A program made the position numbers and the translations under genes. A stretch of 63,467 nt of DNA, the filler included, from Craspedostauros australis (lineage: Eukaryota), in NCBI GenBank assembly GCA_030167865.1. It is 7 parts of 7 records of this genome, joined end to end, with 100 filler letters (N's around TTAATTAATTAA, not from the genome) between each part and the next. Parts side by side here need not be neighbours in the genome. Positions count along the whole stretch, not along the records: positions 1 to 28,478 come from JALAGF010004399.1; 6 more parts are not named here. One strand, written 5' to 3'. The notes under the pieces are model-generated. The model was not told the origin of the DNA and made no database searches. It saw only the letters and a program-made list of their open reading frames with translations. Of this stretch, positions 11,300 through 46,265 are shown piece after piece (position 1 is the first letter of the stretch; each line of letters opens with the position of its first letter).

Positions 11300-13969
11300 T
11301 TAGGATTCGATGATGTAAAATGCCAACCCTTCCTGAAGTGACCCGAGATCTTCATATCCGTAGCCATAGAGGACATACACATAATCCTCTTCAGTCTGCC
11401 AAGAGCATCCATTGATGCATTCCGCGATCATACAAGTAAGCCGGGTGCATGCATTGCCGCCCAGACCTCGGGGATACTTCATCACCGAAAGGCCAAACAC
11501 GTCCCAGGCGTGCTGTGTGCCAAACGGTGTTTTGAGGGTGAAGAGTTTGCCGGTTCCGTCCACTTCATACCACAGCCCAATCGGAAGCTCGGAATCCGAG
11601 ATTGGCGCGCCGAGTGTATGATAGCATGCAGGAGGAACATCGCTATCAGGGGTCGCCGAAACCAGGAAGATGTCCCCACCCATGGTGCAATCGATGAAGT
11701 CCTCGTTCGGGATGACGTTGTCGCCCGTCACGTTGGGATCATCGGATACGACGAACACGGCGTCATTGATGTCCAGTGCGTTGACGCAGAAATCGCCAGG
11801 AACCACTCCAGTGATTGAGAAGTCGGAGACAGACAACACGAAGTCGCCTGCCTCGCCAGGCTTTCCGTGTACCAGGATGTAGTACATCTGCCCTTCTGTG
11901 GTCATCCAACGAGCTCTACTCTGCTGCGAGCTGCAGCTGTCGTCGTCGCCGACGTGGCACGTCATCAGCTGGGCGCGAGACGACAGCAGGGACTCGAGGC
12001 TGATCTCGCCGTTGCGCCAGCGGTAGTACTCGATGGGATCGTCACTGTGCGTGTCGAACTCAAAGACGGAGATCTGAGTATCCCAATCCGCGCGTCCGCA
12101 TGTGGTGACAGCGATGGCCTCGCCGTTTCCAATGACGCTGTACCATGCGCCTTGCGTGGTCTGGGCTGTGGCCGGCCCGCAGGATGGGGCGAGACTGTCG
12201 TCCATCGTGGCGTTCGTGCTGCTGAATCTTCCTGCAGCAAGTCTTCGGTTGTTCCCACGGAGAATGACCGAGCTGTCACCATCGGGTGGAATCGAGGAGG
12301 CGTCACTCGCGATCGATCCGGGAAGGAGGAGCTCGTTTCCTGTTGGATTGATTGGGCCGTACGCAAACATGGAATTCGAATTCGGCCAGACACTCAGCTC
12401 GAAGGTGTCGGGGCTTCCGCTGCCGTCGCGCAAGACTGCGATGAAGTAGTCGCGCCATGGTTCCGCAATCCAGGAGTGGTGCCGCAAGTCGCGGTCGGTT
12501 ATGATGGAAGAGATGCAAGGCATGTACAAACATTGCATGACATTGTCAGAAGATGGCGGAGCATCGAAGACGTACGCGGAGTAGCCATCCGTCACGTACG
12601 CGGTGACAGGCTGCGTCTTGTCTGATCGAAATCGATACCACAGGCCGAATCCGGACGAGATGTTGTCCGCTTCGCAGACCCGATGGAATATTTCTTCAAG
12701 TTCTCGGTTTGCAGTAGAAGCTATGACTTTGTTGTCGTTCCCAATGCCGATGGGATGCGCTGAGTTGCAGTCACGGTTGTCGCCCAGGGTCGGCGATTGG
12801 GTCGGATTCATTGATGGCGACAGTGTGGGGTTGGTTGATGTGGGCGGTGTGGGGTTGGGTGATGGCGACGGTGTGGGGTTGGTTGATACGGACGGTGAAT
12901 GGGGTGATTCGTCCGTCGAGGGAGGCGTTGTTGGAGCATCCGCGATGTTTGTGGTTCGCACACCGTTGCTACCCGACTTGTCGAATTCGCCGGTCGCTGC
13001 GAGAGCGATCACGACAATCGCAGCAATAGCAACAATGGAACAGCAAACGAATGGAAGAACCATCCGTCGACGTTTCTGCTTCTCCTCCTGCGGAGGCGTT
13101 GTGTCATCGTCTTTGTCGTGAGGACCATGTGAGACAACCTGAGCCTCGGTCGCCTCTAGCAGCATTCTCTGCCTCGTGTCAGATTCAATGCGTCTTCGTT
13201 CTTCTGGGGACACCCCGATTCGGCTGGTTCGTACTAGCTCGGCATGGACGGGCGCTGGTGTATTGTCAGCCACGGGTAACTCTGGAGCAGGGCTAGTGTC
13301 CTCTGTGGGCGGCAGGTCATCCATCTCCGCAGATTCTGACGTTCCCCGAACTGCTGTGCCATGGACTCGGAGAGCACCCGTCAGTGTGGGTGCTTCTTTA
13401 TTCAGCATAGTGTCACTTTTGGCATCGCTGTTGATGCTTGCATTGTCATTGATGCTTGCATTACCGTTGATGCTAGCATTGCTATCGGTGTTCTTATTGC
13501 CACTAATGTTCTTACCGCCATTGATGTTCTTATTGCCACTGCTGTTGCGATTGCCATCGTTGGCACCATTGCCGACACTATTGGCATTGATCTTGCGGCT
13601 GAAGATGGACTGCTGATTGCTCCTCTGGTTGATGGGAACCTGTGCTTGCAGAATAGCGAATTGATGCTTGGACGATCTCGTCGCCCGGCCTCGTCCTTGC
13701 GCTTCGCCGCCCATGGCCTGGTTCCGATCTGCCTCGTTGTCTCCGCTCTCGACTGTCGTCGTCTGGTCCGTTTCCTCATAACGGCTGAGTTCCTCAAATG
13801 CTCCGGGAACGCTTGGCGATTCTACATTTGACTGCGCATCCTTGTCAGCCTGATCGGCTACCAAGGCTGGAGCATCACTGGCGCGTTCGTTGGTGCCGCT
13901 ACGGTTCTCATCTTGGCGAGATCCTGCACCTTCCTGGTCGCCGCTGGAGGCGTCTTCCTTTGATCCCAT
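11300..13969 (-). CDS. Type II membrane surface protein with Pro/Thr stalk and three Cys-containing GxWY beta-domains
   Basis: 889-aa ORF: disordered N-terminus, PGAF and VHAELV motifs, TM (LPFVCCSIVAIAAIVVIALAA), NPTPSP-type repeats, then three repeats of C..A..I / G(L/A)WY / W....Y(Y/F/V). Confidence 0.8.
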   Translation of the reverse strand: MGSKEDASSGDQEGAGSRQDENRSGTNERASDAPALVADQADKDAQSNVESPSVPGAFEELSRYEETDQTTTVESGDNEADRNQAMGGEAQGRGRATRSSKHQFAILQAQVPINQRSNQQSIFSRKINANSVGNGANDGNRNSSGNKNINGGKNISGNKNTDSNASINGNASINDNASINSDAKSDTMLNKEAPTLTGALRVHGTAVRGTSESAEMDDLPPTEDTSPAPELPVADNTPAPVHAELVRTSRIGVSPEERRRIESDTRQRMLLEATEAQVVSHGPHDKDDDTTPPQEEKQKRRRMVLPFVCCSIVAIAAIVVIALAATGEFDKSGSNGVRTTNIADAPTTPPSTDESPHSPSVSTNPTPSPSPNPTPPTSTNPTLSPSMNPTQSPTLGDNRDCNSAHPIGIGNDNKVIASTANRELEEIFHRVCEADNISSGFGLWYRFRSDKTQPVTAYVTDGYSAYVFDAPPSSDNVMQCLYMPCISSIITDRDLRHHSWIAEPWRDYFIAVLRDGSGSPDTFELSVWPNSNSMFAYGPINPTGNELLLPGSIASDASSIPPDGDSSVILRGNNRRLAAGRFSSTNATMDDSLAPSCGPATAQTTQGAWYSVIGNGEAIAVTTCGRADWDTQISVFEFDTHSDDPIEYYRWRNGEISLESLLSSRAQLMTCHVGDDDSCSSQQSRARWMTTEGQMYYILVHGKPGEAGDFVLSVSDFSITGVVPGDFCVNALDINDAVFVVSDDPNVTGDNVIPNEDFIDCTMGGDIFLVSATPDSDVPPACYHTLGAPISDSELPIGLWYEVDGTGKLFTLKTPFGTQHAWDVFGLSVMKYPRGLGGNACTRLTCMIAECINGCSWQTEEDYVYVLYGYGYEDLGSLQEGLAFYIIES

Positions 13970-19193: not shown

Positions 19194-19859
19194 TCACAGA
19201 ACGGTCGCCACAAGCATCCATGCAAATCCAAGGAAACTGACGCCCTCGCCGACGGCCGCGCTGCGATCAGCATCCTCACTTTCCGACTCCGCGCCCAACG
19301 ACCCATCCACATCGGTGCTCGCGATACACTCCCCCTTGCAGTTGACGCCGACGCAGCTGCCTTGCGCGACGTTGCGACAGTCGTAGGCCAACGCATTGTC
19401 CTTGCAGAAGGCGCATTTGAAGCACGTGTCCGTGTTGGGCGCATCCTCGAGCTGTCCCACACCGATGGTGCATTCGCAGTCGGCGTAATTCTGCAAGGCC
19501 GGATCGAATTGGGGGCATGCGAGGACGAGGAAGGTGTCCTGTCGCGGCGTGTTGGGGATGGTGCAGTACCGGTTGTCGGTGCCTGTCGACGTGTCGGTGT
19601 AGCAGTTAGCGGAGCTGATGGTGCTGTCCTGCAGGTTGCGGCGCAACGTGGTTGGTTCCCACGTCATGGGCTCCTCCAAGCGCAGCTTGTGCTGTGGCTG
19701 CGTCTCCTCTTGCTGCTGCACTTGCTGTTGCACTTGGTGCTGCATCTCTGCAGTTCGCAGCGGCTCATCGCCGAGTCCATTGTCGGCCAACGCGAGCGCA
19801 GGGCTCAGATGGAAGAAGAGGAGGGAGATGGTGGCGATGACGGAGATCTGTTGCTTCAT
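19194..19859 (-). CDS. Secreted, probably GPI-anchored Cys-rich protein with RxL pro-peptide motif
   Basis: Signal peptide MKQQISVIATISLLFFHLSPALALA, Gln-rich pro-region ending RRNLQ, a 12-Cys domain (CFKCAFC..AYDCRN..GSCVGVNCKGEC) and a C-terminal small-residue site plus hydrophobic tail. Confidence 0.8.
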   Translation of the reverse strand: MKQQISVIATISLLFFHLSPALALADNGLGDEPLRTAEMQHQVQQQVQQQEETQPQHKLRLEEPMTWEPTTLRRNLQDSTISSANCYTDTSTGTDNRYCTIPNTPRQDTFLVLACPQFDPALQNYADCECTIGVGQLEDAPNTDTCFKCAFCKDNALAYDCRNVAQGSCVGVNCKGECIASTDVDGSLGAESESEDADRSAAVGEGVSFLGFAWMLVATVL

Positions 19860-20655
19860 CTTCAAAGCAGTCTTCAACAAGCAGTCTTCAAACGAGTAAT
19901 GCTCGGGAGTGGTCGTGGAGTAGATCGTACTGGTATCTTGGCTGGGCTTGGAGGCTTTGTTTGATTCTTCTGGATCGTGGATTGTTGCGGAATAGAGTTA
20001 CGGATGATGTTGTACGTAGAGAGTGTTGGTGGTATGGAGTGAGCTGTGATCGTCTTACAATGATGATGATGATAATGATGATGCTCTTCTTGCTTCTGCT
20101 CCTTTCTTGTGAGGAATGGCTTTCTTGTTTGCCTTGTTCTGGTGGGTGCCGTTGTTCGTCTCTCCAATTGTCACGAAGACAGCGGTTTGGGGTGAAGAAG
20201 GCAATGCGGTTTTGTATGTGCTCACAAATTTGAGAAACCGCGATCGGCACAACGTTACCGTCAGACGTTAACAAGTGCGCGAAGACAGGAGACTAATAAT
20301 TTCGGAGCAAGAGCTGCGCCGTGCTGACACAGGCTCATTTTCATGATGCTGAAAGTGCTCAATTTCGGAGCATGAGCTGAAGAGATTGGTGAGAAGTATT
20401 CAGTTATTCACATTAATTCAGGTATGATATATGAGTTGCGTTCTTTGACGTGGTGATGTGCGCATTGAACAACAAGAAAGATCTTGTCTCGTTGTTCATT
20501 GGATAAACCACCACGCCAAGCAGACAATTCGACAATTTGGGGATTCAATCCCTCATAGGGAAACGTTCGGAGAGTGTGCATCTATTCTGGTCGTCTCTGG
20601 AGCTGATGCCGTTTCATCTCCGTGCTCGTTCCGGCGGTTAGATTTCAACGGTAAA

Positions 20656-21606
20656 TCATGCGGAGCTAGGAGCCTTGGTGAGCTTGGAGCTGTCGGACTT
20701 GACCTTTGGCATCTTCGTTTCCTTTGGCGCCTTGGTCTTGGGTGCCTTCGTCGCATCAGGGGACTTTGTGGTATCTGGTGCCTTGGTTGCGCTTGGCGCC
20801 TTGGTCATCGACGGTGACTTTGTTGCGTCTGGAGCCTTGGTTGCGCTTGGCGACTTGGTCATCGACGGTGACTTCGTTGCGTCTGGAGCCTTGGTTGCAC
20901 TTGGCGACTTGGTCATCGACGGTGACTTCGTGGCATCTGGAGCCTTGGTTGCGCTTGGTGACTTGGTCATGCTTGGCGATTTCGTGGCATCTGGTGCCTT
21001 GGTTGCACTTGGCGACTTGGTCATGCTTGGCGATTTGCTTGCCTTTGGAGCCTTGGTTGAAGCGGAGCTGGCGAGGGCGGCTGCAGCTGCGGCGGCATCA
21101 GATGGAGACTTGGTTTCCTTTGGAGATTTGGTCTTTGGTGTCTTGGTACCATCTGGCGCCTTACTCTCCTTAGGAGCCTTCGTCTTTGGAGCCTTCGTCG
21201 CGTCTGGTGCCTTTGTGGCATCTGGAGCCTTGGTTGCGCTTGGCGACTTGGTCATTGAAGGCGATTTCGTGGCATCTGGTGCCTTGGTTGCACTTGGCGA
21301 CTTGGTCATCGACGGTGATTTCGTGGCATCTGGAGCCTTGGTTGCGCTTGGCGACTTAGTCATGCCTGGTGCCTTGGTTGCACTGGGAGCCTTCGATGCA
21401 TCCGGTGACTTGGTCTTTGGCTCTTTCGTTTCCTTTGGAGACTTGGTCTTTGGTGCTTTTGTTTCCTTCGGCGACTTGGTCTTGGGTTCCTTCGTCGCGT
21501 CCGGTGCCTTGGTCATGCTTGGAGACTTGGTCTGCAGACGACGGGATTCCGCGTCGGTGGATGCCATGATGGCAAGGAAAGCAAGGACGGCGACGGAGAA
21601 CTTCAT
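20656..21606 (-). CDS. Silaffin-like secreted Lys/Thr/Ser/Pro repeat protein (316 aa)
   Basis: Signal peptide MKFSVAVLAFLAIMASTDA, then ESRRLQ, then about 46 (T/S)KxP units including about 13 KxPK tetrapeptides. No aromatic residues or Cys in the mature region. Confidence 0.85.
   Translation of the reverse strand: MKFSVAVLAFLAIMASTDAESRRLQTKSPSMTKAPDATKEPKTKSPKETKAPKTKSPKETKEPKTKSPDASKAPSATKAPGMTKSPSATKAPDATKSPSMTKSPSATKAPDATKSPSMTKSPSATKAPDATKAPDATKAPKTKAPKESKAPDGTKTPKTKSPKETKSPSDAAAAAAALASSASTKAPKASKSPSMTKSPSATKAPDATKSPSMTKSPSATKAPDATKSPSMTKSPSATKAPDATKSPSMTKSPSATKAPDATKSPSMTKAPSATKAPDTTKSPDATKAPKTKAPKETKMPKVKSDSSKLTKAPSSA
20700..21531. repeat. Coding tandem repeat: 18-bp unit with 54-bp higher-order period (TKSPSM-TKSPSA-TKAPDA)
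   Basis: Repeated gcatctggagccttggttgcgcttggcgacttggtcatcgacggtgacttcgt-like blocks. Confidence 0.9.
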
Positions 21607-22687
21607 CTTGCTGATGGATGTATGGGTTGGCTGTGTCTCGTTTCCGTTTCTATTCAAGTGCGATCAGTCTGTTGGTTGGGAGATTTTATGTCTGTTTCAC
21701 GTTGCCGTTGACGTTGATCAGATGTCGATCAAATTGTGGTGGGGATAAGATGTGAAGTTGTGTGAGACTGTGGAGAATGCGGTAGCAGTGCAATTGTGCA
21801 ACTTCGTTACGACGCAAGTTGTGTGAGTCGATTTGGTGACGAAAAGGTGAACGAGATTGTTTGCAAGCATGTGTTTTGATACCAGTGCACATCACAGGAC
21901 GAACGAAACATACGCGGATGATGATGATGATGAATGGCTCGACTCTCCGTTGCACAACACCAAACGAGTGCCGTACCTCGAGAGAGTGCTTTGTTTGATG
22001 TGCTTTGTTGGTTCTTCTTGTGTTTGTTTTCTTTGCGCGTCTGAGAACAGGGCGAATTTGTGCGATGCGTTGGCTTTCTGATGTCCGCGCGTGTGTGTGT
22101 GTTACGAGTGCGCGTGGATGGGCGAGGCCAGATATGCGAGGTTGTGGCAGCGAGAATGGCCGATCCGGCGTGCCAAATCGTGCCGCAACGGCCGACCGAG
22201 GCTTATTGTCGGCACGTGTCTGTCTCACGACACCATCATACCATAACAAGTTTTGTCGATGGCTGTCGCCAAATCTGGAGCGACAGAGAACCCGCTTTGA
22301 CTACATCGACCAAACATTTCTTTCAATCGTACATATAAAAAATCACGTAATGTGTATGTCCGTGTGTCCGTCTCTGTATTCATTTGCTTCGCCATCCAAA
22401 CGCAAACGTCGCTCCTCACAAAACCAAATCTTGTGATCTCCATCACGAGAACCTCTGTGCAAATCCATCGTTCCACGATGATCATCATCGATCGCCAAGT
22501 CGCCTCTTGACACTCTATCATTCCATTGGAGGGGCTTCTCTCGCTTCCTCCCACGCTCCTCACACATTCATGGTTGCTGCTGACTCCGATCGTGTAGATC
22601 TCGCATCCAAATCAATCAGCTGCGAGCGAAACGTGAAAATCATTACTCTACTTCACAAGCAGAGCACTTCGAGGAACGTGACGCACG

Positions 22688-24565
22688 ATGAGCGGCAGCA
22701 AGGAAGACGACGTCGTGATTGCGCAGAACGCCAAGTCGGTGGCCAACGCACCGCTGCCAGCTCCGTTGGACGACAACGATCCCAACTCCAAGCTCGGGAG
22801 CATCCTTCTGTTCTACCAGTACAAGGAGCCGGAATGGACGGACAAGGAGCACAAGCAGATGCTGAAGGACGTCATCGCCCTGGGGCGGCACTGCAAAGTC
22901 ACGGGTCGCGGCCGCGTGGCGCCGGAGGGCCTCAACTGCACGCTGTCCGGCAGACCCAATGACATTCGCAGCTTCTGCGCTGGGTTGCGCAAGTGCGATC
23001 CCTTGTTCCACAATACGGATTTCAAGATCACGGATGGCATTCCGATCGCCAAGCTGTTCAAGAGCCTCAGCATCCGCAAGACGAAGGAGCTCGTGGCGTA
23101 CGGGTTGGCAAGGGAGGACAAGGCGCCGTCGCTGGCCAAGTTCGCCGGGACGCATCTCAATGCCACGGAATATCACGATGCCATGAAGGACAAGGATACG
23201 GTCATCATCGATGTTCGCAATGCCTACGAATCGGCGATCGGCCACTTCCAGCCACCGACGGACGGAGCAGAGCTGGTGGATCCCAAGATGCGCAATTCCA
23301 TCGAATTCCCAAAGTGGTTGGCCGATGAGCGGACGCAGAAGAAGTTGCACAACAAGAAGGTGCTGATGTATTGCACAGGTGCGTTATTCTTTTCATTCCG
23401 TGAATGAGGTGGACTGTGTGCTTGCTTTATGTGGAAGAGTCCTCAAGCATGGAATATTGTACATTGGCCAGTCTGAACATTGATTGCCTTACCAAACTGA
23501 GAGGCACACTCGACTTGACAAGCAGCGTCGCCTCTTTCTAATGGATTGACTCTTATTTGTCATGTCGCATCATATACTTCGCTACTTGGACACAAAATTA
23601 CTTGGACACACAACAACTACAACAACGACGACTACAACTGGATTGATGTGGCAATCGCAGGCGGAATCCGGTGCGAACGAGCCACGGCCTTGCTCAATCA
23701 AATGTCGTCGATCAATTCCAAACAGTGCAAACCAAAGGGCGTTTACGAACTGCAGGGCGGCATCGAACGATACGTCAAGACGTACCCGCAGGGCGGATTC
23801 TGGAAAGGCAAGAACTACCTCTTCGACCGTCGAATGGAGCAGATCCCCGGCGACAAATCCGAACATCAGGCCGATGCGGAGATTGGCAAGGACTGCACGT
23901 GCGTTGTCTGCAACAAACCATGGACGAAGTACCGCGGCAAATACGCATGCTCGCGCGGTCTATGTGGCGTGCCCGTGGTCGTGTGCGATGATTGCAAGAT
24001 GACGGCGACGACCAATCCCGAGCAACTCACTTGCGTGCTGTGTCGTGATGGGTACAAGGCGCCGCAGCTCATGCCGGATCTCGTCGGGATGAAACGGAAA
24101 GCAGAGAGCCAAGCGGCGGTCATTGATGCAGACACAGATGCAGACAGCTCGTCGCGAAGCAACAAAAAGTCAAAACGGAACGCCTCCAACGAAAACAATG
24201 CCAAGGTGAACATCAAGGATCGATTGTTCCTGTCGAGGCTGCCGCTCACGGCCACAAGGACCAAAGTTGCGGAAACCTTGGGCGATGCGCGCATAAAGGC
24301 ATTGCAATGGCTGACGGATAAGAAGACTGGCGCATTCTACGGCTCCTGCATTGTTCAGGTGGAATCGGAACGCAAAGGAGAGGAGATCATTCGATCTGCG
24401 AAGAGTGGATACAGGATGGACAAGAAGAAATTCCGGATATCTTTCTGTCAACGCAGGGCCGCAAGCGACGACGGCGGCGACAATGGAGCTGAGAAATCGA
24501 AAAGCGAGAGTGCTTGGCCACCGCCTGGCCATGTGGAAAAGGAGTATCCGCCGATCGGCAAGTGA
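22688..24565 (+). CDS. TSTD2: TrhO/YceA-family (TSTD2-like) rhodanese protein with C-terminal RRM; exons 22688-23378 and 23661-24565
   Basis: ILLFYQY, GRGRVAPEGLNCTLSG and IIDVRNAYESAIGHF. The intron 23379-23660 (G|GTGCGT ... CGCAG|GC) rebuilds the hallmark YCTGGIRCE. Also YELQGGIERY, WKGKNYLFDRR, a Cys cluster, and RNP2/RNP1-like RLFLSRLP / FYGSCIVQV. Confidence 0.9.
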
Positions 24566-28160: not shown

Positions 28161-28522
28161 AGCATTCACAGCAATCATGATGGTCAGACCACATCCATGG
28201 ACGTCACGGATCGCGTCTCCAACCAGCGACNNNNNNNNNNNNNNNNNNNNNNNNGAATCGCGTCGCCAACAGCCTCTGCAACAGGCATCGATCTTCCAGC
28301 GGGAGCATACGTTGCGAACCGTGTGCTTGCTCCAAATAAGCGGTAACCGGCCCAAACAGCGCGTTCCGCATCCTTGTCTTCTGGGTCCGAGGCCGACCAG
28401 CAGTCGAACGATCAACAGCAGGCCAAGAAATTGGCACGAAATGCCGAACCCCCACCTGTGACCATGACGCAAGCTACCNNNNNNNNNNNNNNNNNNNNNN
28501 NNNNNNNNNNNNNNNNNNNNNN

Positions 28523-28534
28523 TTAATTAATTAA
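28523..28534. other. Artificial contig-join linker TTAATTAATTAA within N run (also 49796-49807, 54362-54373, 56267-56278, 58112-58123, 60937-60948)
   Basis: Identical 12-mer with stops in all six frames, always embedded in N padding. Confidence 0.97.
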
Positions 28535-29387: not shown

Positions 29388-32300
29388 TTAAATGCGCTGC
29401 TGAGAATGCTTGGTGATCTGCTTGCGCAGCACCATGACTCCGCTTCCGACCAAGCCGATGAAACCGAGCGCCCGGAGACTAGGGATCCCGGTGCACACGA
29501 AGGTTGGGATCAGCGTCAGCGGCATGAAGATACTGAACTGGTTGGATGGCACGTCCTGCTCCTTCCACAGCCGCGACAAAACGAGGAACAGGGAGGGCAG
29601 CGCTGCGGCAAGACCGCCCAGATGAACGAGCGGGGTGAAGATGTTGTCGCATGTCCAAATGCCGCTCGCGGCGAGCTTGGTGGAGACGTCCGTTGCGGCG
29701 CTGTAGCTGATGCTCCTCTCGGCGAGCTCCGCCAGCATCCAGGCTTCTGACTTGTGATCGAACAAATTGGCGAACATGGTCTTGTGGATGGAGGCCGTGC
29801 GTCCATCGATCAGCCCTCTGAGCAGGATTACGTACAGCGATGCGATGAACAGCACGAGGCACGTTGCGATCACCGGCGGGGCGAGACGGTTGGAGTCGTT
29901 CAGTGCATCGATTGTGAATCCGATCGTCTGAACCTGAGGTTTGGATTTGTTGGACACCCGCTGCACCGTGCGTCTGCGATCGTTCGATACTTCGCCTTCC
30001 AAGGCCAGAAGCATCGGCGCAACCAGAAAGGTTCCCAGAATGGACACCGGAATGCCAAGAATTGTCGTGACGTCGAAGTTGTCGTCCAAGCCAGCGACGC
30101 CGTATCCACCGTACAGGACGGTAATGGCGAGCAGCCAGGCCATGGCCGCATTGAGGTTGCCGAGTTTTCTGGAGGCACGGTCGCGTCCTGGCCTGGCTCT
30201 CAGCGCACAGGCGATGGACAACGCCGAGATGGAGGCCACCGTGAGGAAGGTGGACATCCAACCACCGACGCCGAACATCGGCTCCTCCAGGCTCCTCACG
30301 AGGAGGTGCGGCGCCGAGACGACGAAGGTGAAGACCACCAAAATGGCAACCCAGATCTTCGACACCTGATCCACCTCGTCGAAGTTCTCCAGTTCCAAGA
30401 AGTAGGACAGGACCGCCACGACGGTCGCAAAGAAGGAGACTGCCATGGAACCGAATCCGGTGGCGATCAGGATGGGCAGCGATGCCTGGCTCATGCCCTG
30501 CATCGTCACGAACCACGAAACTCCAGATCCGAACATCATGCTGAACATCATCATGCGGAAGAGCATCATGTTGTCCTTCTTGCCGGTGGGCGATCGACGT
30601 TCGCGAAGCTCCAACGGCCCCGTGACGGCCAGCAACGTGGCCAGGGACGCTACGAGGATGCCCCAACCTCCCGTGCGGCTTGTGCCGTCGGAAGACAGCT
30701 TCGAACCAACGCTGGAAATGGATGCGTACGGGTTGGACACGCCATTCTCCAACGTGCCGCGGATCCATTCGGGCACTGACGGTGCCGACAGCGCAATTCC
30801 AACTCCCATGGCCAACATCACCATCGAAACTCGCTTCCAGGTCTCCGCTCCTCCGTCGGGCAGATAATGCGACAGCATGGAAAGTAATGCGATGCCCCAC
30901 AACGCCAGCGCGAACCCAATCAGCTCGCTGAATGGAGGCGCGACGCTGTAGTACGCTCCACCACCGTAGTGCTTGGAGAATGCCATGATGAGAGGCGTGA
31001 GCACGTAAGGGACTGTCGCCATCAGCGTGATCGGCATAATAACGAGACTGTACAAGTAAATGAACTTCCTTGCCTTGGTCGGTACCTCCACGTCCGCCAC
31101 CATGTTCGATGTTCTGCGCCTGCGTCCCGTGCTCGTCTTCATGTAGATCGGCGATAGGATTGCGCGTGGTGCGAACATGACGATGAGCATGATCGTGGTG
31201 ACCATGGCGCGGAAGAACAGCTGCGTTGCCTTGCGCTCCTGTCTCTTTCGACTGCGGATGCCGCCGTCCAGTTCGCTTGCGTCAGTGATGACCGCCACGG
31301 CCTTGCCGATGGCCAATGCCGCAAGGCACATGGAGGCTTTCGATGAGGCGATCTTTTGCCTGTAGTAGAAGAATGCGATCGCGAACAACAGCAGACTGGT
31401 GATCATCGCCGTGGCGTGATCGTACAGATAGCCCTCGTCTTGCCACGCATCGGACCCGCTGACGTCCATGTCCTGACCGACGAGTTCCTTGGACGGCACA
31501 GGATGCTTCAGCAAGGTGAGCTCCAATATCGTGAGCAGCAGGGCGTAGACGCAGGCGAGGATGCCGTTGGCATCTAGACGCTTGAGGATGGAGGCGCCTG
31601 GCCCACCTGCCGGTCGCACAGCGAGGCCCGTGACCAAACCGATGAGGACCGATGCCGCCACGAATGTCATACCGAATCGGACGAGAGGCACGCGCACGCT
31701 GAATGGCATAGCCAAGGCGACGGTTTCGTTGATGACGGCGAATCGGTAATTGAACACGACCACGCCGGACGCATGCACCACGAAGAGGAAGATGCTGAGG
31801 TATCGCAGCATGCGTGTTGCCATCCACACCGACAGACCCAGCGAGGACAGGATGGGCAGCGGCGTCAGTCCCCACGGCATTCCAAATGCCTTGCCGAACA
31901 GCAGCCCCCCGCTGGCGATGCAAAGCTGGATGAGATCCTCCTGATACTCGCCGAACAACGGTTCGTTGGTGACGTTCGAGACTCTGCCCGTCATCCATAC
32001 AGCGAAGTAAACTGCCAGCGTGGCCGCCGTGAGGTACATGGAGACGACCGTCGTGGAGGCCAGGTCGTGACCGTTGAATTGATACGCCACCGTGTGACAC
32101 AATGGAATGAGGTACCGTTGCTGCAACGCCCAGGAACCAAGCAACGAGACGCCCATGGGAATGAGAGCGCCGCGCAACGTGGTGCCCTGCGGGAACAGGT
32201 TGTTGCGCTTCATGACGTACGGCGAATCGAGCTTCTTGCGCACCGTCGATGTCTGTGCTGCGCTTGTTTCATCGTTGGTCTCGGCGGAGCTGTCAACTTC

Positions 32301-34001
32301 GAAACTCATGACGTGCGTGGATAAGATGATCAAGCTGAAGTGGAGCATGTAGGGGACCGTCCAGACCAATACGACGTCGTAGATATCATCCATGGATGCG
32401 TTGCGGCTGAGGATGCGATGGCGGAACATGAGGATGTGCACAAGTCCTGGCACAAGCAGCAGGAGCATGGAATGGATGCGCGCTACCGTTGCCGTGATAC
32501 AGTATTGGACGGAATTTGCTGATTGCGTTCTCGATCCATGCAGCTTCGAGTTGGGGCTGTTGCCGTAGGACGGTTTGGCGGATGAGTTGTTGTTGGCAAG
32601 CTCGAATGAAGTTTCCGATGTTCCGAGAAGGTACATTCCAATCGCGAGGAAGGCCGCGAATAAGTGCGGTGCGAACGTTGCCACTCTGTCCAATCCCCAG
32701 TACTCGGAGAGCAAACGAACGACATGGAACGTCCCTATACAAGCCACAAGGGGTGGTAGCGCGGAATGCAAGGACCGTTCCATCCCAATGGCCACGGAAG
32801 GAACATCCTTGTGCAACCATTCGAATTGGAGTGTTCCCCAGCATGCCTGTGTTGAATTTTGCGCCGGGCGCACACAGATGAAACGATACAGTTGGAATGG
32901 AAGAGAGGGGTAGAGATGAGCGTGTTGGTGTGCCGCAGTTGAGAACGAAACAGAACAAGCACAGAAGCATGACAGCAATGCAATGCAATCCAATTCAGTG
33001 GACGTAATTCAGCACAACCAAATGGCACGCACCATGCAACAGAAGAACATGCCCTCGACGGCCAACTTGAGCAGCTGCAGGATCATCTCGGAACCGCTGG
33101 CATCCGCGTCGTCGACCTGCAACAAATTCCCGAATCCGCTGAGCATGGTGAGAAAGAGCGCCGAGATCCAAATGGCCACGACGAGGGCATCGCGAAAGTC
33201 GCTCAAATCCAAGGCGTAGAGGATGAGGGCGTCGATCATGATGAGCTGCAGGACGAGGGGCGATTCGTGCCACCAGAGGATGGAGACGAAGGTCGGCAGG
33301 AGCAGGAGCAGGGCGAGGGCATTGTGGTCGTATGTTTGCTTCGCGCCGGCCTTGATTCTGCTGGGCGCGGCCGATGGTGCCTGTTTGACGGGCGTGGCGT
33401 AGCTGCTTGGAGGCAGGACGTAGGGTGAGGAGTAGGACACCACGCCCGGTCCGGAATGTACGTTGGTGTGATCGGCGCCTGCGGTGGCGTACGATGCACC
33501 CGCATAGTACGATGATGCTCCCGGCAATGCTTGCGAAGTCGCAAAGCCAGATCCGTTGGAGTACGATCCTGCTGCTGTGGATGCAGACGTGGAAGATGCA
33601 GCCGCTGATGCTGCATCAGGCGTTCTTCTGTGCGTCATTCCTGTGGTGGCGGCTGGGGTGGCTGGCATTGGAGGAAGGGACGTCGACGTTGGCGCAGCTG
33701 GTTTGGGTGGTATGACTGTTGGCGCTGCTGCTGGCGTGTTTGGTTGTGCGTAGCCATAGTACGCAGACGTCGCCGTAGGTCTTGCTGGTGCTACTGCTGT
33801 TGCTGTTGGCTGCGCCTGTGACTGCAGATGAGACGGTTGCTGCGAATGCTGGTGCTGAGGCTGACTCTGATACCCGTATGGACTTTGCGCTGGAGGCTGA
33901 GGCCTTGGAGGCGGGGTTGGCGGTGGCTTCGGTCGACCATACTGCTGCTGCTGTTGCTGTGGCGGCGGCCGTGGTGGTGGTGGAGGTTGAGATGACGACA
34001 T
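29388..34001 (-). CDS. NEF1: NO EXINE FORMATION 1-like polytopic membrane protein; exons 34001-33033 and 32846-29388
   Basis: Pro/Gln-rich N-terminus then more than 20 TM segments. The intron 33032-32847 (ATG|GTGCGT ... ACAG|GCA) gives FFCCM-ACWGTLQFEWLHKDVPSVAIGMERSLHSALP, matching the plant NEF1 segment as I recall it (CWxxLQFxWL..E.P......ER.L). Confidence 0.8.
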
Positions 34002-36027: not shown

Positions 36028-38922
36028 CTACGCCGGCGGAACCACGCGACGAACTACCGATGCTGATATGCCCATCAACATGGAGGAGTCGTTCTGTCGA
36101 TCCCGTTTGCAAGCAAACAACTTCGTTTCCGTAACACCGGTTGGACCATCGTCACTATCGCTGTCGCTGTCACCACCGCACAACCTGCGATACTCCTCGA
36201 CGGCACGGATCGTCGCGTCGACGTCCAGGTTGCCGACGCCAGCGTTGCGCAGGATGCTGCGCCGGATGGACGAGGAGAGGAACAGATCGCGGCTGTGCGC
36301 GACGCGGTAGTCCTGGCGGTAGCTCTCGTACCTGTCCAGGTCTATGGGCGGGATCTGGATGAAGTTCCAGTCCAGCGCGATGGGCGGGCCGTATGTCACG
36401 GAAGGGTGGTCGCCCAATGTTTGTTGGTACAGTCGGATTTGGACAGAGGAAAAGGAAACGGAGGTTTGGGCAAGGTGGGGCGTGGTGGTGTCAGGGCAAG
36501 TCGCAGGTCCCGGTGCGACTGCAGACTCCGGCTCCGATGCATCCACGGATGCGGATGTTGAGTCAGGTGCTTGAGAAGTCCGGACGTTCTTTGGCGCAAT
36601 CACGGAAGTGTCAAGTGATTTCAGATCGATGGACGCCAATCGTTTGTACGGCGATGGCGGGTTGGCATTCTCCGGTTCTGATGACTGCGATTGTGGCTGT
36701 GACGATGGCACCAAAGTCCGCAGAGGCGTTACGATGGTGGAGATGTGATGGGGTTCATCGTCGGTGTCGTTGATCGGCTTGATGCGATCCGGGGTTGTAA
36801 TGCGTGGATCGTATTGAAGGTAGTCGGAAGGGTGAGTGTTTTCGTCGTAGCCATGATCAATCGGTGCATCCATCACATCTGCATCTACAAGTGCATCATC
36901 GTTGTTGTTGCTGTCATCGCTGTGGTCTTCATCTTGGTAAACCATCGGGTCGTTGATCTCGTGGAGAGCAAGATTGGTTGCCACTCCGTCATACCCGTCC
37001 TCGCTTGTGCTGTCATCGTCACAGGAGCCGTCGCCGTTGCTGCTGCTGATCTCCGGCATGTCTTGATGTTCGGTGATGTTGTCAGTGATGAAGTGAGTCC
37101 AGTCTTCATGATCATACTCATGGCTAGGGTCATCGCCGTCAGACTCGTGCGCAGGCACATCCTGGGCTTCGTCTTGGAGCTCTGGCAGATGATCCGACAT
37201 GTCCATCATCATCTGAAGGAAGGATTCCTCGGACGTGACGGAAACTGTCAAACTTGCTGTCGATGTGGATTGGTTGATGCTGTTGGCATCGAAAAGGCGC
37301 GATACCGACGGGTCCTTTGCGTTGGGTTGGAACTCGGTGGTTTCTGTTGTTTCGGCCGGAAGGGGTGTCGTGGATCCATCACCGATCTCTTCCTCCGGCT
37401 CCGCTTCCTGTTCTCGTTCCTGGTGTTGCTGCCCCATCTCTTCCTCCTGTTGTTGCATCTGAACTTCTTCTACTTCGTCTTCGAGCGCCTCTTCCAATGC
37501 CTCATCTAGTGCTTGTTCTAGTGCCTCTTCCAGTGCCTGCTGGATACCTTCCTCCTCCTCGAGTTCCTCCGGTTCGTGCTGTTGTTGTTCCTGTTGCTCT
37601 GGATGTTGCTGTTCTGGTTCCAAGTTCGACCCCATGTCTTCTTGCAACGCTGTTTGCGACGCCACATCCGTCTTTGACTCGGACGTCCCCACGTCTTTTG
37701 AATCCTTTGTGACGTCTGCCTTCATCTCGACGACGCCGTCAAGTTCCTCGGCCTGCTTCTCTTCACCCGATGTCCCATCCTGCGCTGCAGGATTCGCATC
37801 ATTCGATGCGCGTTCGGAGGCATGAAAGAAGGCCGACAGCGAGACGGTGGGCTGCCTCTGTTTGGAGTGGAACCGCTTCTGCAACCTCGTCTCGGTCTCA
37901 CGTCGCTTCCTCATCTTCTCCCTCAAGGTCTGCAAAGAGGTGCTGACCTCGCTGTTGCTCCCCACGCTCTCGAGCGTCAAGGACGTGTCTTCGAGCGACG
38001 GCTGGTGCCTGCTGTGCTGTTCGTCTTGGAGGTCCTTCTCGAGCGTCTTGACGTGCTGCTGATAGCGTTTGACCTCCTTGTCTCGCATCCAGAGCTCCGT
38101 CTGCAGGTGGCGCAGCTGCTGCTTGTGGTCCTGCAGCTGGTGGCGGTGGTTGCGTTTGAGCGTCGTCATGGTGGACCGGAACTGCGTGATGAGCTCGGCC
38201 ATGGAGTGCGCTGAGATGGTGGTTATGGATGCGGATGGCGACGATGGTGTCTCTTGGGCTGGACAACCATCTGATCCCTCCTTGTGTTCGTCCATGAGAG
38301 AATCGCAGTCACTATCATCAGCATTGACAGCACTGTTGATGACGCTGGCGTTGATCCGGCTGACATGCTCCAGTTCACACTGAAGGGATCGCATCATGTC
38401 GAACTGTTCTCGTTTCATCATGCGGAGTTGCTGCCGCAGCTCCTTCAGATTGCTATCGTTGTTGCTGCTCGTCCTGATCTGAAGCCGAGTGTGAGGTAGT
38501 GTGTGAGCTGCGTCCGCGCCAGCATTGTCGCTGGTCTTTGGTGGTTCGTGCGCATCAGCCGCATCAAGTCCGACGTAATCGTGGATGTCCTTGGATGTCT
38601 CTGGATACTCGCAAGTGTCCGTATGGTCGCTGATGTCCGTGTCCATGGTGGCTTTGGTTGCATGGGAAGAAGCAGACGATGATGAACTCATTCCTTCCTG
38701 TTGCTGTGGTTGTTGCGTTTGGATCTGCTGTTCCGTCTCCGTCTTTATCCCCATGCTGGATCGGACAGGTGATGGTGACGACAGCTTGAGCTCCATCTCG
38801 TGAGTGGATGACAACGTTGTGGAAAACGAGAGATTCATGGCATCACTGATCTGTCTCCTGCTCTCTTCGACCTGATCACAGCCTTCGCAATCATCGGCAG
38901 TTGCTGCCTGTGTCCTCATCAT
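36028..38922 (-). CDS. Large acidic/coiled-coil protein with C-terminal VSF..V.IR.Y...LGDHP...GPP..LDW domain
   Basis: About 965-aa uninterrupted ORF with heptad-rich and Glu/Asp-rich regions. The C-terminal motif [32 protein letters not shown]...YESYR...RRSIL belongs to a family common in diatoms. Confidence 0.8.
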
Positions 38923-40831: not shown

Positions 40832-43800
40832 TTAAGGCCGGGTAAGCCACGCGGCCATGAGCGAGCGTTCCTGTTGCATGGACTGCTGTCGCTGCCTGGC
40901 CCGTGCGTCCCGCCTGACCTTTTTCGCCAGTTCGATCCACTGTTTGACCTGCTGTTGAGAGCCAGTGTCTGCCACCACTCCTCGCTGAAGTATCCGCGCT
41001 TCGCGCAGTGTGAGGTCGGGGGGTTGAAAGGAGCGGAGTCGCCTCGCGAATTCCCGCGTGCGCGCTGCCTCGGAGCCTGGCTCTTCATGCTTTTTGTAGT
41101 TCCTCGCGGTCCAGACTGACCAGGGAATCTTCCAGATGCGGCGTATCACGTCCGCTGCCCAAGCCTCCGCCGTGCGGTGCTTCGACAAGTTGTCTTTCAT
41201 CCAGGCTTCCTGCTGCATCTTCCAGTCGACATGTAAGAACCCCTGCAGCAGCGGGAGCCACCCCACTGCTCGCTGCGGTCCTGCCGGCTTAATCTTCCTC
41301 CTCCACCTGCTCATGCCTTGGCGCATGCCTCCCACCACACGGGGGCACGTGCCGACTGCGACCATGTAGTCCAGCAACTCCGTTACTGACTCTTCCCACG
41401 CTTCTTCATACTCACCACAAGTAAGAAGATGCGTCACTGTTTCCTCTTGTCGGCAGCTCGGGCACTCGGAGCTCTCCTGCTGCCCTGCCTGCTTCATCTT
41501 GCGCCCTACCGCCATGAACCCGGTCGAGAGCTTGGTCACAAACTTGACGCTGTCACGGGCCGCAGAGGACTTGCGCGCCTTGGAGTACGACGCCCAGTCC
41601 ACCTGGGAAAGGACTTCGCTACTCCACCCGTGCTTGGCCTGCCAATATTCGTTGATATCCTGCTGCTGCGCCACTGACTCCATTTCGACGGAGTCGAGGT
41701 GGGAGTAAGGTTGGCCGGACCAGCCGACCCGCCACACATCGGCGGACATAGTCCACTTGTCGATAGCCGGGAGTCGGGAGGCCGTGTTCCAATGTCGCTT
41801 CGCTGCTGCGTCAGCACGGATGTTGAGCCTCGCCCAGATGTCAAGCGACGACGTGGAGTCGTCCTGGTGGCCTTTCACCCACTTCCACTTCAGAGAGCAC
41901 TGAATGATGCTCTTAACATGCTCGATCTCCGCGAGCAGGTCCCAGTCCCTCTGCGTAGGCTGGGGACTACCGTCCCTAGCTTGGATGAGTGCCTGCTTCC
42001 CGTCGAGAGCCAGAGTGACCGATGGAATGGTCACCTCGTGCTCAAGCCAGAAGATATGGATGAGAGAGGCCAAAATGCCCATGAGCTTGCTGCGGTAGGA
42101 GCTCTGCATCTTTGGGACTCCGGGCACTGTAGCCAAGACCATCACCGATTTCTCGGATTGGGTGTCGTAGATAATCGAGGCGGATGTGCCACACCCAGCT
42201 TTGAAAGATCCATCGCTCACCGCTATCAGAGTGCCGTTGACGGACGCCCGGTGGGCATCATGGCAAGTAAGATCGCCCTGTGTGCTCTGAATATACGGAA
42301 ACCGCTCGGGCTCGTGGAAAGGGATATCATCGTAGGGCAGTTGGTCGCCTGTGCTACCTTCCCACGTCACGTGAGCGTCCCGCCGGGTGACTGAGACACG
42401 CACAACGTCGTCGGGCACCGGGATTGAGACCGCCACCGGATGATACCGGACTCGCCGAGTCTTCCGTTGGCCTCGCATCCGGCGATAGGCGATGGTTGAA
42501 GACGTGCGGATCTCGAAGATTGTGTTGGTGGGTTGGTGCTGCCACCATCTCAACTGATGTTCGTCGATGTGCCACGGCCCCAAGGGTTGCGCAAGAGCCC
42601 TGCCTGCCCGAACCAGTCGGTTGCAGAACTGTCGCCACTCGGCCCACCAACTGGCCGGCAACCGCGATGGGAGCTGGGTCCAAGATGCACGCAGTGTGGA
42701 CGACTCGAGGCCGTGCCACGCTTCGGGAGTGATTTCGGAACCGCACGCCGAAGCGATGTCGGAGACAAACACTGCCCCCAACATCTGGCGGCACATGTTG
42801 ATGCGCCGGAAGCGCTGCCCATGATAACCGAGGCTCAAAGCAATTTCGGTGAGGGTTCGATCGCCCTCGCGCTGGGGCACGAATGCCGGAGTGCGCTCCT
42901 GGACGTGAAACCCTGCTTCCTGCAGATGCCCCCAAAGGTTGGAGATCCAGCATGGAGTGACGGCGTCCTGAAGAAGATGGTGGGGTTGGTCGAACAGAGA
43001 GCCCGAAACCCCTACTTCGTCCTTGACCGCCGCAATCGAAAGTTCGATCATCCTTCCTGTCGGGGAGGAGGCATGCACTTCCTGAAACATGGCCTGTATC
43101 TGTCGCACCACTTGACGCCGCCATGGGTGCGGGATACCAAGACCTCCGCCTGAAACCGGAGCGTACAGCACCGTCCTAGGGAAGGTGCGCATCAGCCCCA
43201 TTTTTGGCAGCGCCGCTTGCAGGGCCGGGGCCATGATGTGCCGCCACTGCTCCTGAGTGAGCTGCGTGGCAGCCATTACGTACTCCACGGACTTCATGAA
43301 ACGCAAGACCAAGGCTGTTCTGGCCTCGCTCGGAGTGATGTTCGCCACTCGAATCCTTTCGGCAAACGCCTCGGACTTCTGGCGTAGGGTCGTCACCTGG
43401 ACCGTGTTGTCCCCGTTGAGCGATATGGCCACGCCCAGTGTTTCGACCGGGTCGGTGTGACACTTGCGCGGAATGATCGACGCGCTGCCGCCTTTGTTGG
43501 AGATGTGGATCTGGCGCGTAGTGTGCGAATCTGCTGCCCACCATTGCCCCGCCTCGAAGGAGAATTGGATCGCCCACCATGCCGACTTGCTGGGCACGAT
43601 GGCCCCGCCAGTAGCCGCCAACAGGCCGTTCCAATCTTCGATCATGTTCTGAAAGCCTCCGAATCCGCCTGAAGCCGTTTCGCCCGCCGAGATACGGATG
43701 AGGTCGGTATCGTCGACGAAAGCCGACCCCAGGATTTTCACTGAGGACCGGCTCAAGGGGCCGCGGAGGGTGGACTCGTGTCCTCGTGCCTGCATGGCCC

Positions 43801-46265
43801 GGAACATCACGGAGCTGATCACTGCCCAGATTGCAGGACCAGCCCCGTTTCCTTGCCCGATGCCGTGCATGATGCATTCGTGGTCTTTCTTGTAGCTGGC
43901 AACCGACACTCTGTGCGCCGTGCTGACATAGTGCTCTGCCTTCTGCAGGGTGCCAAACATGCTGCGCACCGCACTCGGGTTGGCGCCTGCCGCCATCATC
44001 GCCGCTGCCGCAAAGTTTGGCACGATCCTGTCGTAGCAGGACTTGGCGTCGTTCGAACAGAAGAAAACTGGAGCTTTTTTCTGGTACGCGATGTCGAGCG
44101 AAAGTCGTTTGTTGAGAGCCGCAACTATCGCCGACATCCCCTTTCGGCTGCCGAATTGATACTCCGACAACCATCCAGCGGATTCCGCTGTGGCCATCAT
44201 GTCGCGGCCTAGGCGTTTGTTGTTGAGGTTGAATTGGGCGTCCATGAGTTGGATCGTCCGCATCTTTTCAATGTTGTACACCTGCGCCTTTTTCAAAATC
44301 TGTACGTCCGTGATCCTTCGCCACTCCTTCGGGGATACTGCGCACTGGTAGGGAATCTCCCGCAGCTGCATGTCCACGGCAGCGAGTGAGGCGTTTTGGG
44401 AGGCTGCCTTGTAATGGCCGAAGTGTGGGTTGGCTGGCTCGGAACTGACTCTTTCTGTTTGCTTCTTCCATGCCTCCACGTGATCGTCCACCGAAAGCAG
44501 ATCCGGGGGGGGAGGAGATGGGGTGCAGCGCATTCAGGAGCGCTGTCAGCATCTCGTCGGTGCCTTCTGGAGGGGGAGGGTCGCTGTGTAGCACTTGGTG
44601 CGATGTCTCTGCGGACCAGATCTTGTTCAGGTAGCCTCGTCCTGGCCGTGTCAGACACGGCATGGCCTTGGCCTGGGAGAATCTCTGTCGATTTTCTCTG
44701 ATACAGGCTTCCGCGATTTGCCCTGGTTTGGTACACTCATGCGTGGTGCCGCTCGAGTCCGTGTAGAGGACCTTCGTCGTGAGGGAGTTTTCAGCACCGA
44801 GCACCCTTCGTAGCCTCCTGGCTTCCGCTCGTTGCGCTTCCCTGTTTTGGAGCTGTCGCAGCGCGCTGTCCGCTTCCAGCTGCCCCTGTTGTTGTTTGGC
44901 CTGGGCGAGTTCGACGAGGTACGCTTGTCGAAGCTCCCTGTGACTTGCCTTCAGCTCGTAGTACTTTTTGTACGCTTGCGATCTTTGCGAGTACGCCTCG
45001 TCCAGAGACTCGGTCGGTGAGAGGCCTGTCTGCTGTCGAAGCCGCTTGCGCAAGGAGGAACTGACCCGGACCTTGTTCAGTGCCTTGACCTCCATGCTCC
45101 AAAAACGGATATTAAGGCGGGCGTGCTGCACCGCTGGGGACCATTCTATGGCGCCCATCCGGAGGTGTCGGCATTCCTTCTCCGCCTTTCGTTTGATCTC
45201 GTTGGTTTGGGATGTCAGGCGGTCCAGTTTGGACAGTTGGGAGTCGTTCAATTCCCACCCTTGGTTCTTCGCCGCGTCGGCGAGCGCTTGCGCCCGCCGC
45301 ATGATTCCATGTCTGGAATATTCGGCCAGGAGTGCGTCGTTGTACCGTTGCACCACTTTAGGGTGCTGAACTTGGAGCCTCCTGGGCTGCCGCGAAGGGA
45401 TGGGCTGCGTTCCGTGTCCAAGGATCTCGTGGAAGTCCAGGTCCAGCCAGATCGCTCTGTGGTCGGATGGGATGGCCTCCCCAAAATTGTAGTACCTGCC
45501 GTCCACGATGTGTACTCCAGAAGAGACAAACATCGCGTCGATAGGGGTACCCTTTTGGTTGCGCTGCTGGGTGGCAGTGCGGGCTTCCTCTCCCATGTAT
45601 GACCAGAGGGCGTTAGGCAAACCGAGGTCTGACATGGCTTGTGCGGTGGGACCGTCGATCGTGTCGTCGTTGACGTCCACTCCGATCACCAGTACCTCTC
45701 CTGCCTCTTTCCATCGCTGAATGTCTTTTTCCAGGTCGACTTGCCAGGCGTGGATGGGGTCGATCGCTCTCCTCATTGACTGGAGAGCTCGAACCTGCTG
45801 CGACCACACTGTCTGGTCGCCCTGGTCTGATTTGCAGGGCCTGTAAGCGGCCACGACGCGTAGTCGTTTCCCTTGCTTCCCTTCGAACGCGAGTGAAGAC
45901 CATCTGCCCATGCCTGACGAGTCGGACTCCCGCCCGTAGACGCGGTGGGACAGCTCTTTGAAGGCTGCCACCGCGGAGCCGCCGTATTGACGTGGCTCTC
46001 GGTGCTGCTCGTGGATGTTGTGGGCGAAGATGGATTTTTCTTTCCTCAGGGGGCCTGGTAGGCGCTCTTTCCATTGGTCGGTGGCGTAAACGTTGTCCCA
46101 GCGAATGTTAGTTTCTGCCATTGCTATGACGTCGACTTCCTCCTGGTGCACGAAGTCGAAGATGGCTGTGTTCTTCTCCTGGTACTTTTTGAGGGGGATT
46201 TGGGCCACGTTTTGAAAGGCGATCCGGACAGTGTCCTTACGTTTGGGCTTCTGCGGGTATTGCAT
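40832..46265 (-). CDS. LINE ORF2 polyprotein (APE endonuclease, reverse transcriptase, RNase H, zinc knuckle), split by a frameshift at 44505-44512
   Basis: APE: VRIAFQNV, IAMAETN, IGVDVN, IDAMF, SDHRAI. RT: QFGSRKG, NDAKSCYDRI, GIGQGNGAGPAIW, AFVDDTDL, TLGV. RNase H: AVSDGSF, LDGKQAL, WVKGHQD, LNIRADAAAK. Knuckle: CPSCRQEETVTHLLTC. Confidence 0.93.

Follow-up and report, generated by a model that had tools for sequence, protein, structure and literature searches.

A repeat protein gene in Craspedostauros australis

The DNA analysed here is a window of 63,467 nucleotides from the diatom Craspedostauros australis (assembly GCA_030167865.1), assembled from seven parts of genome records joined by filler, and its main subject is a gene on the minus strand for a highly repetitive protein, P0001 (all positions count along the whole window). 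Repeat units make up 87% of the length of this protein, and its parts, numbered in amino acids (aa), are laid out along the gene as follows.

20656..21606, minus: complete, single-exon coding frame of P0001, 316 codons and a TGA stop
21550..21606, minus: signal-peptide-like N-terminus MKFSVAVLAFLAIMASTDA, aa 1-19, predicted heuristically from the Kyte-Doolittle maximum and a modelled helix
21535..21543, minus: RRL, aa 22-24, the only RXL of P0001, within ESRRLQ after MKFSVAVLAFLAIMASTDA
21100..21531, minus: N-terminal repeat half, aa 26-169
21415..21495, minus: Lys-dense block 1, aa 38-64, TKEPK-TKSPKE-TKAPK-TKSPKE-TKEPK, holding the sole match to the pentalysine pattern (aa 47-58)
21199..21396, minus: hexapeptide and 18-aa array of the N-terminal half, aa 71-136, period 54
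21115..21198, minus: Lys-dense block 2, aa 137-164
21058..21099, minus: Ala-rich hinge DAAAAAAALASSAS, aa 170-183
20752..21039, minus: 18-aa higher-order array of the C-terminal half, aa 190-285, TKSPSM-TKSPSA-TKAPDA, period 54 with 90% matches
20698..20751, minus: Lys-dense block 3, aa 286-303
20659..20697, minus: C-terminal tail SDSSKLTKAPSSA outside the repeats, not hydrophobic at its end

A search for the pattern [TS]K.P returns exactly 46 units; when residues 26-316 were shuffled 2000 times, the count averaged 3.15 and never exceeded 10. Each unit contains exactly one Pro, Thr occupies the first position in 42 of the 46, and the commonest forms are TKAPDA (nine copies), TKSPSM and TKSPSA (seven each), TKSPKE and TKAPK (three each). 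The 18-aa unit, TKSPSMTKSPSATKAPDA, occurs in five exact and two near copies, and Tandem Repeats Finder detects a 54-nt period in both halves of the gene (20762-21059 and 21215-21363, 89-91% matches); the DNA periods are in all 54, 18, 33 and 15, with protein units of 6 and 5 residues. If K stands for TKxPK(E), m for a unit ending in PSM, a for PSA, d for PDA, and x for another hexapeptide of the same form, the order of the blocks reads md-KKKKK-daxadmadmadd-KKxKK-[Ala hinge]-K-madmadmadmadmaxd-KK-tail. The RRL motif sits three residues past the presumed signal cleavage site and one residue ahead of the first repeat unit. The original prediction, made from the bare sequence, had described about 46 (T/S)KxP units following a signal peptide and RRLQ, and Lys-dense KxPK blocks alternating with an 18-aa repeat in two halves; this description is borne out in each part, with three Lys-dense blocks, two arrays of the 18-aa repeat, an Ala stretch between the halves, and a hydrophobic N-terminus followed by ESRRLQ, the signal peptide being judged from hydrophobicity and a modelled helix.

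Coding status of the repeat

The openness of the minus frame proves nothing by itself, because a repeat free of stop codons keeps several frames open, and a long frame is also found on the opposite strand.

20969..21748, plus: antisense open frame, 259 codons, GDLV/ASGALVALGD repeats, mirroring the repeat array

The copies of the repeat differ from one another in an informative way. Five 18-aa units with identical protein differ pairwise at 1-10 of 54 nucleotides (mean 6.0). The three commonest hexapeptides have 15 variable sites, of which 13 fall at third codon positions, and the remaining two correspond to a Ser TCN/AGC switch at one unit position; among the eight units starting with [TS]KSPSM, codon pairs differ synonymously in 160 cases and non-synonymously in 52. 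Read in the antisense frame, these same differences alter residues (giving IDGD, IEGD or MLGD), and this frame was judged spurious as a product. Since the copies vary silently when read in the minus frame but not when read antisense, the minus frame is the one translated and its peptide is constrained, so that 20656..21606 is, on the evidence of its sequence, a real coding frame maintained at the protein level. It is thus highly improbable that the locus encodes no protein, being open only as a 54-nt minisatellite devoid of stops, or that its real product is the antisense frame: the repeat does hold several frames open, the exact P0001 protein is not on record and none of the sequencing runs recorded as RNA contains this stretch, but this account must also explain why the minus frame opens with a unique signal-peptide-like segment and closes with a unique tail, both of which the antisense product lacks.

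Contigs from X1, a public sequencing run of unrecorded kind, are colinear with the locus.

20419-20857, 20995-21244, 21328-21440 and 21448-21739 (span 20419..21739), strand unassigned: X1 contigs, with 0 other letters and 0 gaps

One of these contigs spans the stop codon of P0001 and another its start codon, and an intron-less gene therefore fits, which is not in itself proof of transcription, as X1 may be DNA, or even the sample behind the assembly, and is possibly not independent of it. Between 17000 and 25000, X1 cover is missing at 17000-17800 and 21806-24183, a pattern that was not used as evidence. Two further runs, X2 and X3, contributed no contigs.

Composition and predicted structure

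P0001 comprises 62 K (19.6%), 57 A (18.0%), 53 S (16.8%), 46 T and 46 P (14.6% each), 16 D, 12 M and 8 E, with only 0.6% Gly and no C, H, N, W or Y. The chain following RRLQ has a calculated mass of about 29.3 kDa and an isoelectric point of 10.2, and residues 20-316 carry a net charge of +40. Consecutive Lys residues are separated by 6 residues in 31 of 61 gaps, and by 3 residues in 20. At the N-terminus, the 15-aa Kyte-Doolittle maximum reaches 2.19 at residues 3-17, and the presumed signal cleavage site is preceded by the small residues T and A at -3 and -1. The structure predicted from the single sequence has a mean pLDDT (predicted local distance difference test) of 44.6, with no residue at or above 70; its only long helix covers residues 5-23, corresponding to the signal segment, and three more helical residues fall at the hinge. 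P0001 is thus predicted to be an intrinsically disordered, strongly cationic protein with no modelled fold.

The hinge is unlikely to span a membrane, because its Kyte-Doolittle value (0.89) is too weakly hydrophobic, and the last 15 residues of the protein average -0.66; with no hydrophobic C-terminal end, P0001 carries no glycosylphosphatidylinositol (GPI) or transmembrane signal. Two other readings were rejected. The signal peptide speaks against a protein of the histone-H1-like or neurofilament KSP-like type, to which there is some resemblance. Diatom plastid presequences have an aromatic residue after their cleavage site, and since the corresponding residue of P0001 is Glu, plastid targeting was likewise provisionally discarded.

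Relatives and look-alikes

Database searches returned compositional matches. Pfam gave nothing above its cut-off (the best, PF05403, scores 14.9 bits against 45.8, and is compositional), the ESM Atlas gave no usable match, and a PDB sequence search gave one compositional match, the LIM-domain protein 9e5c_0q (E 4.1e-12), which was not taken as relatedness. All 14 matches at E <= 1e-3 among the 8000 scored in a word-indexed homologue search are low-complexity. A HMMER scan of 1.84 billion representatives yielded 489 matches at E <= 1e-3, with 51 at <= 1e-10 and a single one at <= 1e-30, and those examined are low-complexity stretches of unrelated proteins, such as bacterial linkers, a rotifer EGF protein or a Pseudo-nitzschia trypsin. 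Strings of the P0001 repeat units, sought in the main texts of papers, brought up no paper on diatoms among the matches listed.

Four of the 150 matches listed (P0150, P0166, P0204 and P0257) nevertheless share the layout of P0001, with a hydrophobic N-terminus, an RXL motif (RML, RAL, RIL or RRL) and TK[AS]P units starting within a few residues of it. They stem from short ENA contigs, and their resemblance to P0001 may be convergent. P0150, P0166, P0204 and P0257/P0285 differ from it in being 100-170 aa long, in having simpler units of the TK[AS]PK[AG] type, and in lacking the 18-aa higher-order repeat. Further small proteins from ENA contigs (P0248, P0255, P0002 and P0169) combine a hydrophobic N-terminus, RXL and TK[AS]PK[AG]-type repeats; further RAL and RIL motifs stand between the repeat blocks of P0166 and beyond them, and P0257/P0285 ends in a hydrophobic C-terminal tail.

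A possible silaffin-like role in the cell wall

The reading that we favour, tentatively and at somewhat below an even chance, is that P0001 may be a processed, disordered and cationic protein of the diatom cell wall, silaffin-like in its action. The signal peptide would bring the protein into the endoplasmic reticulum (ER), and a diatom RXL endoprotease would cleave after RRL, so that the mature chain would start at or beside the first TKSP unit. Modifications of the secretory pathway might then follow as in silaffins, with methylated or aminopropylated Lys, phosphorylated Ser and Thr, and possibly hydroxylated Pro, and the Lys clusters would deliver the protein to the silica deposition vesicle or the forming wall. 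At that site, an extended chain with one Pro per 5-6 residues could offer evenly spaced amines to silica or to acidic polymers of the wall and, by binding them, promote or pattern silica deposition.

Several features of P0001 are consistent with such a role. The screen of Scheffel et al. 2011 calls for an ER signal peptide together with at least 18% Ser and at least 10% Lys per 100 aa (quoted in PMC3478156 and PMC5501833); 91 of the 217 100-aa windows of P0001 reach this composition, and the signal peptide is present as judged heuristically from the hydrophobic core, the -3/-1 residues and the modelled helix. An RXL after the signal peptide is described as a processing motif in Sil1p, frustulins, cingulins and silacidins (PMC4557024), and P0001 has one such motif, the RRL at aa 22-24 straight past its signal peptide, whose cleavage is predicted. 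The pentalysine criterion of Poulsen et al. 2013, as described in later work (10.1101/2021.09.18.460806, PMC5501833), looks for K..K..K.{1,2}K..K or for five non-consecutive Lys in 12-14 residues, and the former pattern reportedly occurs in 29% of proteins associated with silica, compared with 1.5% of the background (preprint 10.1101/2021.09.18.460806). P0001 has one match to this pattern, at aa 47-58, and 14 windows with five Lys. Its 20 K..K motifs (KAPK 6, KETK 4, KSPK 3, KEPK 2 and five singletons) are moderately enriched, with 12.5 +/- 2.8 expected from shuffles. The same preprint reports longer flank-specific motifs such as SKA.K and GKS.K as enriched more than 20-fold (10.1101/2021.09.18.460806), and the six KAPK and three KSPK of P0001 include their KA.K and KS.K cores. 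Finally, TpSil1 and a further 13 proteins of the silaffin-like or KXXK type are described as having Pro-Ser/Thr repeats (PMC5501833), so that Pro periodicity beside Lys clusters has a precedent.

P0001 can be compared with several groups of known proteins. With the silaffin-like proteins of Thalassiosira pseudonana it shares a signal peptide, RXL, Ser/Lys windows, tandem repeats, K..K clusters, co-occurring Pro-Ser/Thr repeats and a lack of homology elsewhere, and it departs from them in having one Pro per unit inside its KxxK, no motif of the KSSK/KSGK type, Thr-first units in 42 of 46 cases, a single RXL and 18% Ala. Silaffins proper (Sil1p of Cylindrotheca fusiformis and tpSil1-4) are likewise polycationic, Lys/Ser-rich repetitive precursors with an RXL past the signal peptide (PMC4557024) and a pentalysine-type cluster, but they are defined biochemically, by release from silica, polyamine or methyl groups on Lys, and phosphorylation, whereas P0001 is known from its sequence alone; moreover, an RXL closes every repeat of Sil1p, against one RXL in the whole of P0001. 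Cingulins also have Lys/Ser-rich repeats containing KXXK, a signal peptide and RXL (PMC4557024), but in these proteins Trp- or Tyr-rich regions alternate, and with neither Trp nor Tyr among its 316 residues P0001 was excluded as cingulin-like. Outside diatoms, an unmodified Pro/Lys/Glu-rich repeat peptide of sorghum Siliplant1 is reported to precipitate silica through its Lys amines (preprint 10.1101/518332). Siliplant1 (repeats KKPXPXKPKPXPKPXPXPX) is, like P0001, secreted, basic and disordered, with Pro/Lys/Glu-rich repeats and RXL, and the TKEPKTKSPKETKAPK blocks of P0001 have a Siliplant1-like Pro/Lys/Glu composition. It differs in being a plant protein with His/Asp-rich and Pro/Thr/Tyr-rich domains, and the likeness is one of composition, with no sequence relation expected.

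A number of results weigh against a silaffin-like role, and those concerning Lys, processing and relatedness can be taken together here. A stricter screen (Brembu et al. 2017) requires repeated KXXK, X being S or G, 1-6 residues apart (PMC5501833), and P0001 does not pass it, with 0 K[SG][SG]K motifs, because all of its KxxK carry Pro, Glu or Thr. Five Lys within 14 aa were obtained in 2000 of 2000 shuffles, and the pentalysine pattern in 306 of 2000; the Lys-cluster criteria are therefore weak evidence, being largely a by-product of a Lys content of 20%. A single RXL implies that the chain is not cut into small peptides of the silaffin type. The composition screens for silaffins are themselves loose. 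P0001 has no true homologue among its library matches, which are compositional, and thus no relative with a known cell location. The exact protein is also absent from a collection of 15 billion proteins, even though its neighbour P0016 is present in it (out of 5 open reading frames, ORFs, of the window that were looked up, only 19197-19859 was found). The remaining objections come from the features that P0001 shares with glycosylated proteins.

Alternative roles for a secreted polycation

Less probable than a role in silica, and yet a serious contender, P0001 could be an O-glycosylated, hydroxyproline-containing protein resembling mucins, hydroxyproline-rich glycoproteins (HRGPs) or arabinogalactan proteins (AGPs), which would act at the cell surface, in mucilage or in the extracellular polymer matrix, outside silica. 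The isolated Pro of its Ser-Pro and Ala-Pro pairs would be hydroxylated, glycans would be borne by them and by Ser/Thr, and the resulting stiff, extended core would bind acidic polysaccharides through its Lys. The AGP thresholds of Finding-AGP (signal peptide, more than 50% Pro, Ala, Ser and Thr, or PAST, and a glycomodule index of at least 0.15; PMC5266747) are all exceeded by P0001, with 63.9% PAST and 62 AG-type glycomodules giving an index of 0.20, but these cut-offs were devised with land plants in mind. No two of the 46 Pro are adjacent, and in 43 cases the preceding residue is Ser, Ala or Thr. Repeats rich in Pro, Thr and Ser (PTS) are reported to mark glycosylated adhesive proteins of diatoms, with dihydroxyproline abundant in adhesive material (preprint 10.1101/2023.03.06.531300); a solved glycofibril is a linear Pro-Ser/Thr repeat peptide, and similar repeats are reported in diatoms (PMC11725842). 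The hydrophobic tail of the look-alike P0257/P0285 is also like GPI signals. On composition, a glycoprotein role would thus fit P0001 equally well.

The known members of this group are nonetheless rather different. The PTS-rich trail proteins of raphid diatoms and the TLP-4 glycofibril cores are secreted and disordered, with periodic Pro next to Ser/Thr and expected O-glycosylation, as P0001 would be. Trail proteins are very large and Gly-rich, with 69-78% P+T+S+G and CAA, GDPH or Cys-rich domains, and they are not described as Lys-rich, the available text of the source containing 0 mentions of lysine for them (preprint 10.1101/2023.03.06.531300). P0001, in contrast, has 316 aa, 20% Lys, 0.6% Gly and 46.5% P+T+S+G, and Pfam finds in it no CAA, GDPH, Cys-rich or other domain. 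TLP-4 is described as runs of the tetrapeptides PT/Sxx or T/SPxx (PMC11725842), a period of 4 that contrasts with the units of 6 and 5 in P0001, and the C-terminal GPI-type hydrophobic signal expected of AGPs is absent. The two roles are not mutually exclusive, because tpSil1H contains dihydroxyproline (PMC5501833), and as P0001 passes both the Ser/Lys screen and the AGP thresholds, composition gives no means of telling a silica-templating protein from a glycosylated one of the matrix. The alternatives named in the original prediction, a biosilica template or an adhesive or mucilage protein, both stay in play, with a poor fit to the known adhesive-trail type. Its description of P0001 as silaffin-like from KxxK, RxL and Ser/Thr richness holds for the Ser/Lys screen, the one RXL and the one pentalysine match, and does not extend to KXXK with Ser or Gly; the label is partly supported and operational, resting on composition rather than on homology.

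It is unlikely, though not negligibly so, that P0001 is a secreted low-complexity polycation with some other role, for example as a spacer or brush, in defence, or in association with acidic proteins of the wall, TK[AS]PK being a common linker sequence of diatoms that here forms a whole protein. TK[SA]PK stretches do occur elsewhere as linkers or tails on folded domains (P0011, P0007, P0002, P0169 and P0140): P0011 is a trypsin domain with a Pseudo-nitzschia source name and a TKSPK/TKAPK tail, and P0140, from Dactyliosolen fragilissimus, has TKSPS/TKSPDY repeats before a hydrophobic segment resembling a membrane span. Bacterial matches bear linkers of the TKAPDATGTPEA type. On the other hand, repeats account for 87% of P0001 against 54, 48 and 45% in the next proteins (among the 150 matches listed and two more proteins), a linker with no partner needs a function of its own, and the order of the blocks and the protein-level constraint argue for a specific role.

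A bolder reading, which we regard as doubtful, is that P0001 and the look-alikes P0150, P0166, P0204 and P0257 could belong to a class of wall proteins that recurs in diatoms and has so far gone unrecognised, each an RXL-primed, strictly Pro-periodic lysine comb. A polyproline-II helix has 3 residues per turn. In this conformation, the 6/3 spacing of Lys would line up Lys along a single face of the rod, together with the residue at position 5 of the unit, which is Ser, Asp or Lys; the one-sided row of amines and phosphorylatable hydroxyls could template silica or zip together acidic polymers, and the alternation of Lys-dense and Ser/Asp blocks could encode a pattern at the nanometre scale along the rod.

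Genomic surroundings

GC content ranges from 46 to 60% in 2-kb windows, with an average of about 53%. A scan of ORFs of at least 80 aa for a hydrophobic N-terminus left only P0001 and P0016 judged convincing as secreted proteins, and of 20 neighbouring ORFs scanned, 15 gave no Pfam family at E <= 1e-5. The other features of the window are as follows.

14739-16325, minus: PLP-dependent enzyme
19194..19859, minus: P0016, adjoining P0001 downstream on the same strand, 221 aa, secreted-looking and Cys-rich
22688..23407, plus: open frame matching UPF0176_N
23702..24565, plus: open frame matching Rhodanese_C
11300..13969, 29388..32783, 36028..38922 and 40832..44533, all minus: long open frames of 889-1233 codons, with no Pfam family at E <= 1e-5
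188, 28231-28578, 40448, 49752-49851, 54318-54692 and elsewhere: 841 N in short runs, some of exactly 44 bases

P0016 carries RRNL near residue 73 and closes with a hydrophobic stretch at its C-terminus. An identical sequence is catalogued from JGI/IMG and mmetsp sources; a search for relatives gave five unnamed ones at 45-50% identity and no family, and P0016 offers no functional context. SiMat7-like proteins are described as having a signal peptide, RXL and a C-terminal hydrophobic segment (PMC5501833), and the layout of P0016 resembles this three-part layout, by description only. The named best matches of the PLP-dependent enzyme are all from diatoms (Thalassiosira, Nitzschia inconspicua, Mayamaea, Fistulifera and Amphora, 52-57% identity), which points to a diatom host with no near relative among these named matches. 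The frames 22688..23407 and 23702..24565 are probably one rhodanese-type gene, split by an intron or a frame change. The runs of N, which represent gaps in the assembly or masked sequence, all fall well away from P0001.

Implications

The patterning of silica in diatoms is thought to be guided by species-specific, disordered proteins rich in Lys and Ser, few of which have been localised or tested. P0001 is a reasonable candidate for the silaffin-like group, itself loosely defined, but falls short of a discovery so far: apart from its unusual regularity and the few look-alikes in which RXL is followed by repeats, nothing separates it from the many diatom candidates that are defined by composition. 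That silaffin-like and AGP-like composition screens pick the same sequence calls for caution with genome-wide lists of candidates, and should P0001 prove ordinary, the cost would be small, as every diatom genome holds many such candidates. It is at the same time an unusually clean case, small and intron-less, with 87% of its length in one type of unit and two contrasting types of block, Lys-dense KxPK blocks and Ser/Asp hexapeptide arrays, and this simplicity would make experiments with synthetic peptides and tagged proteins easy to design and interpret.

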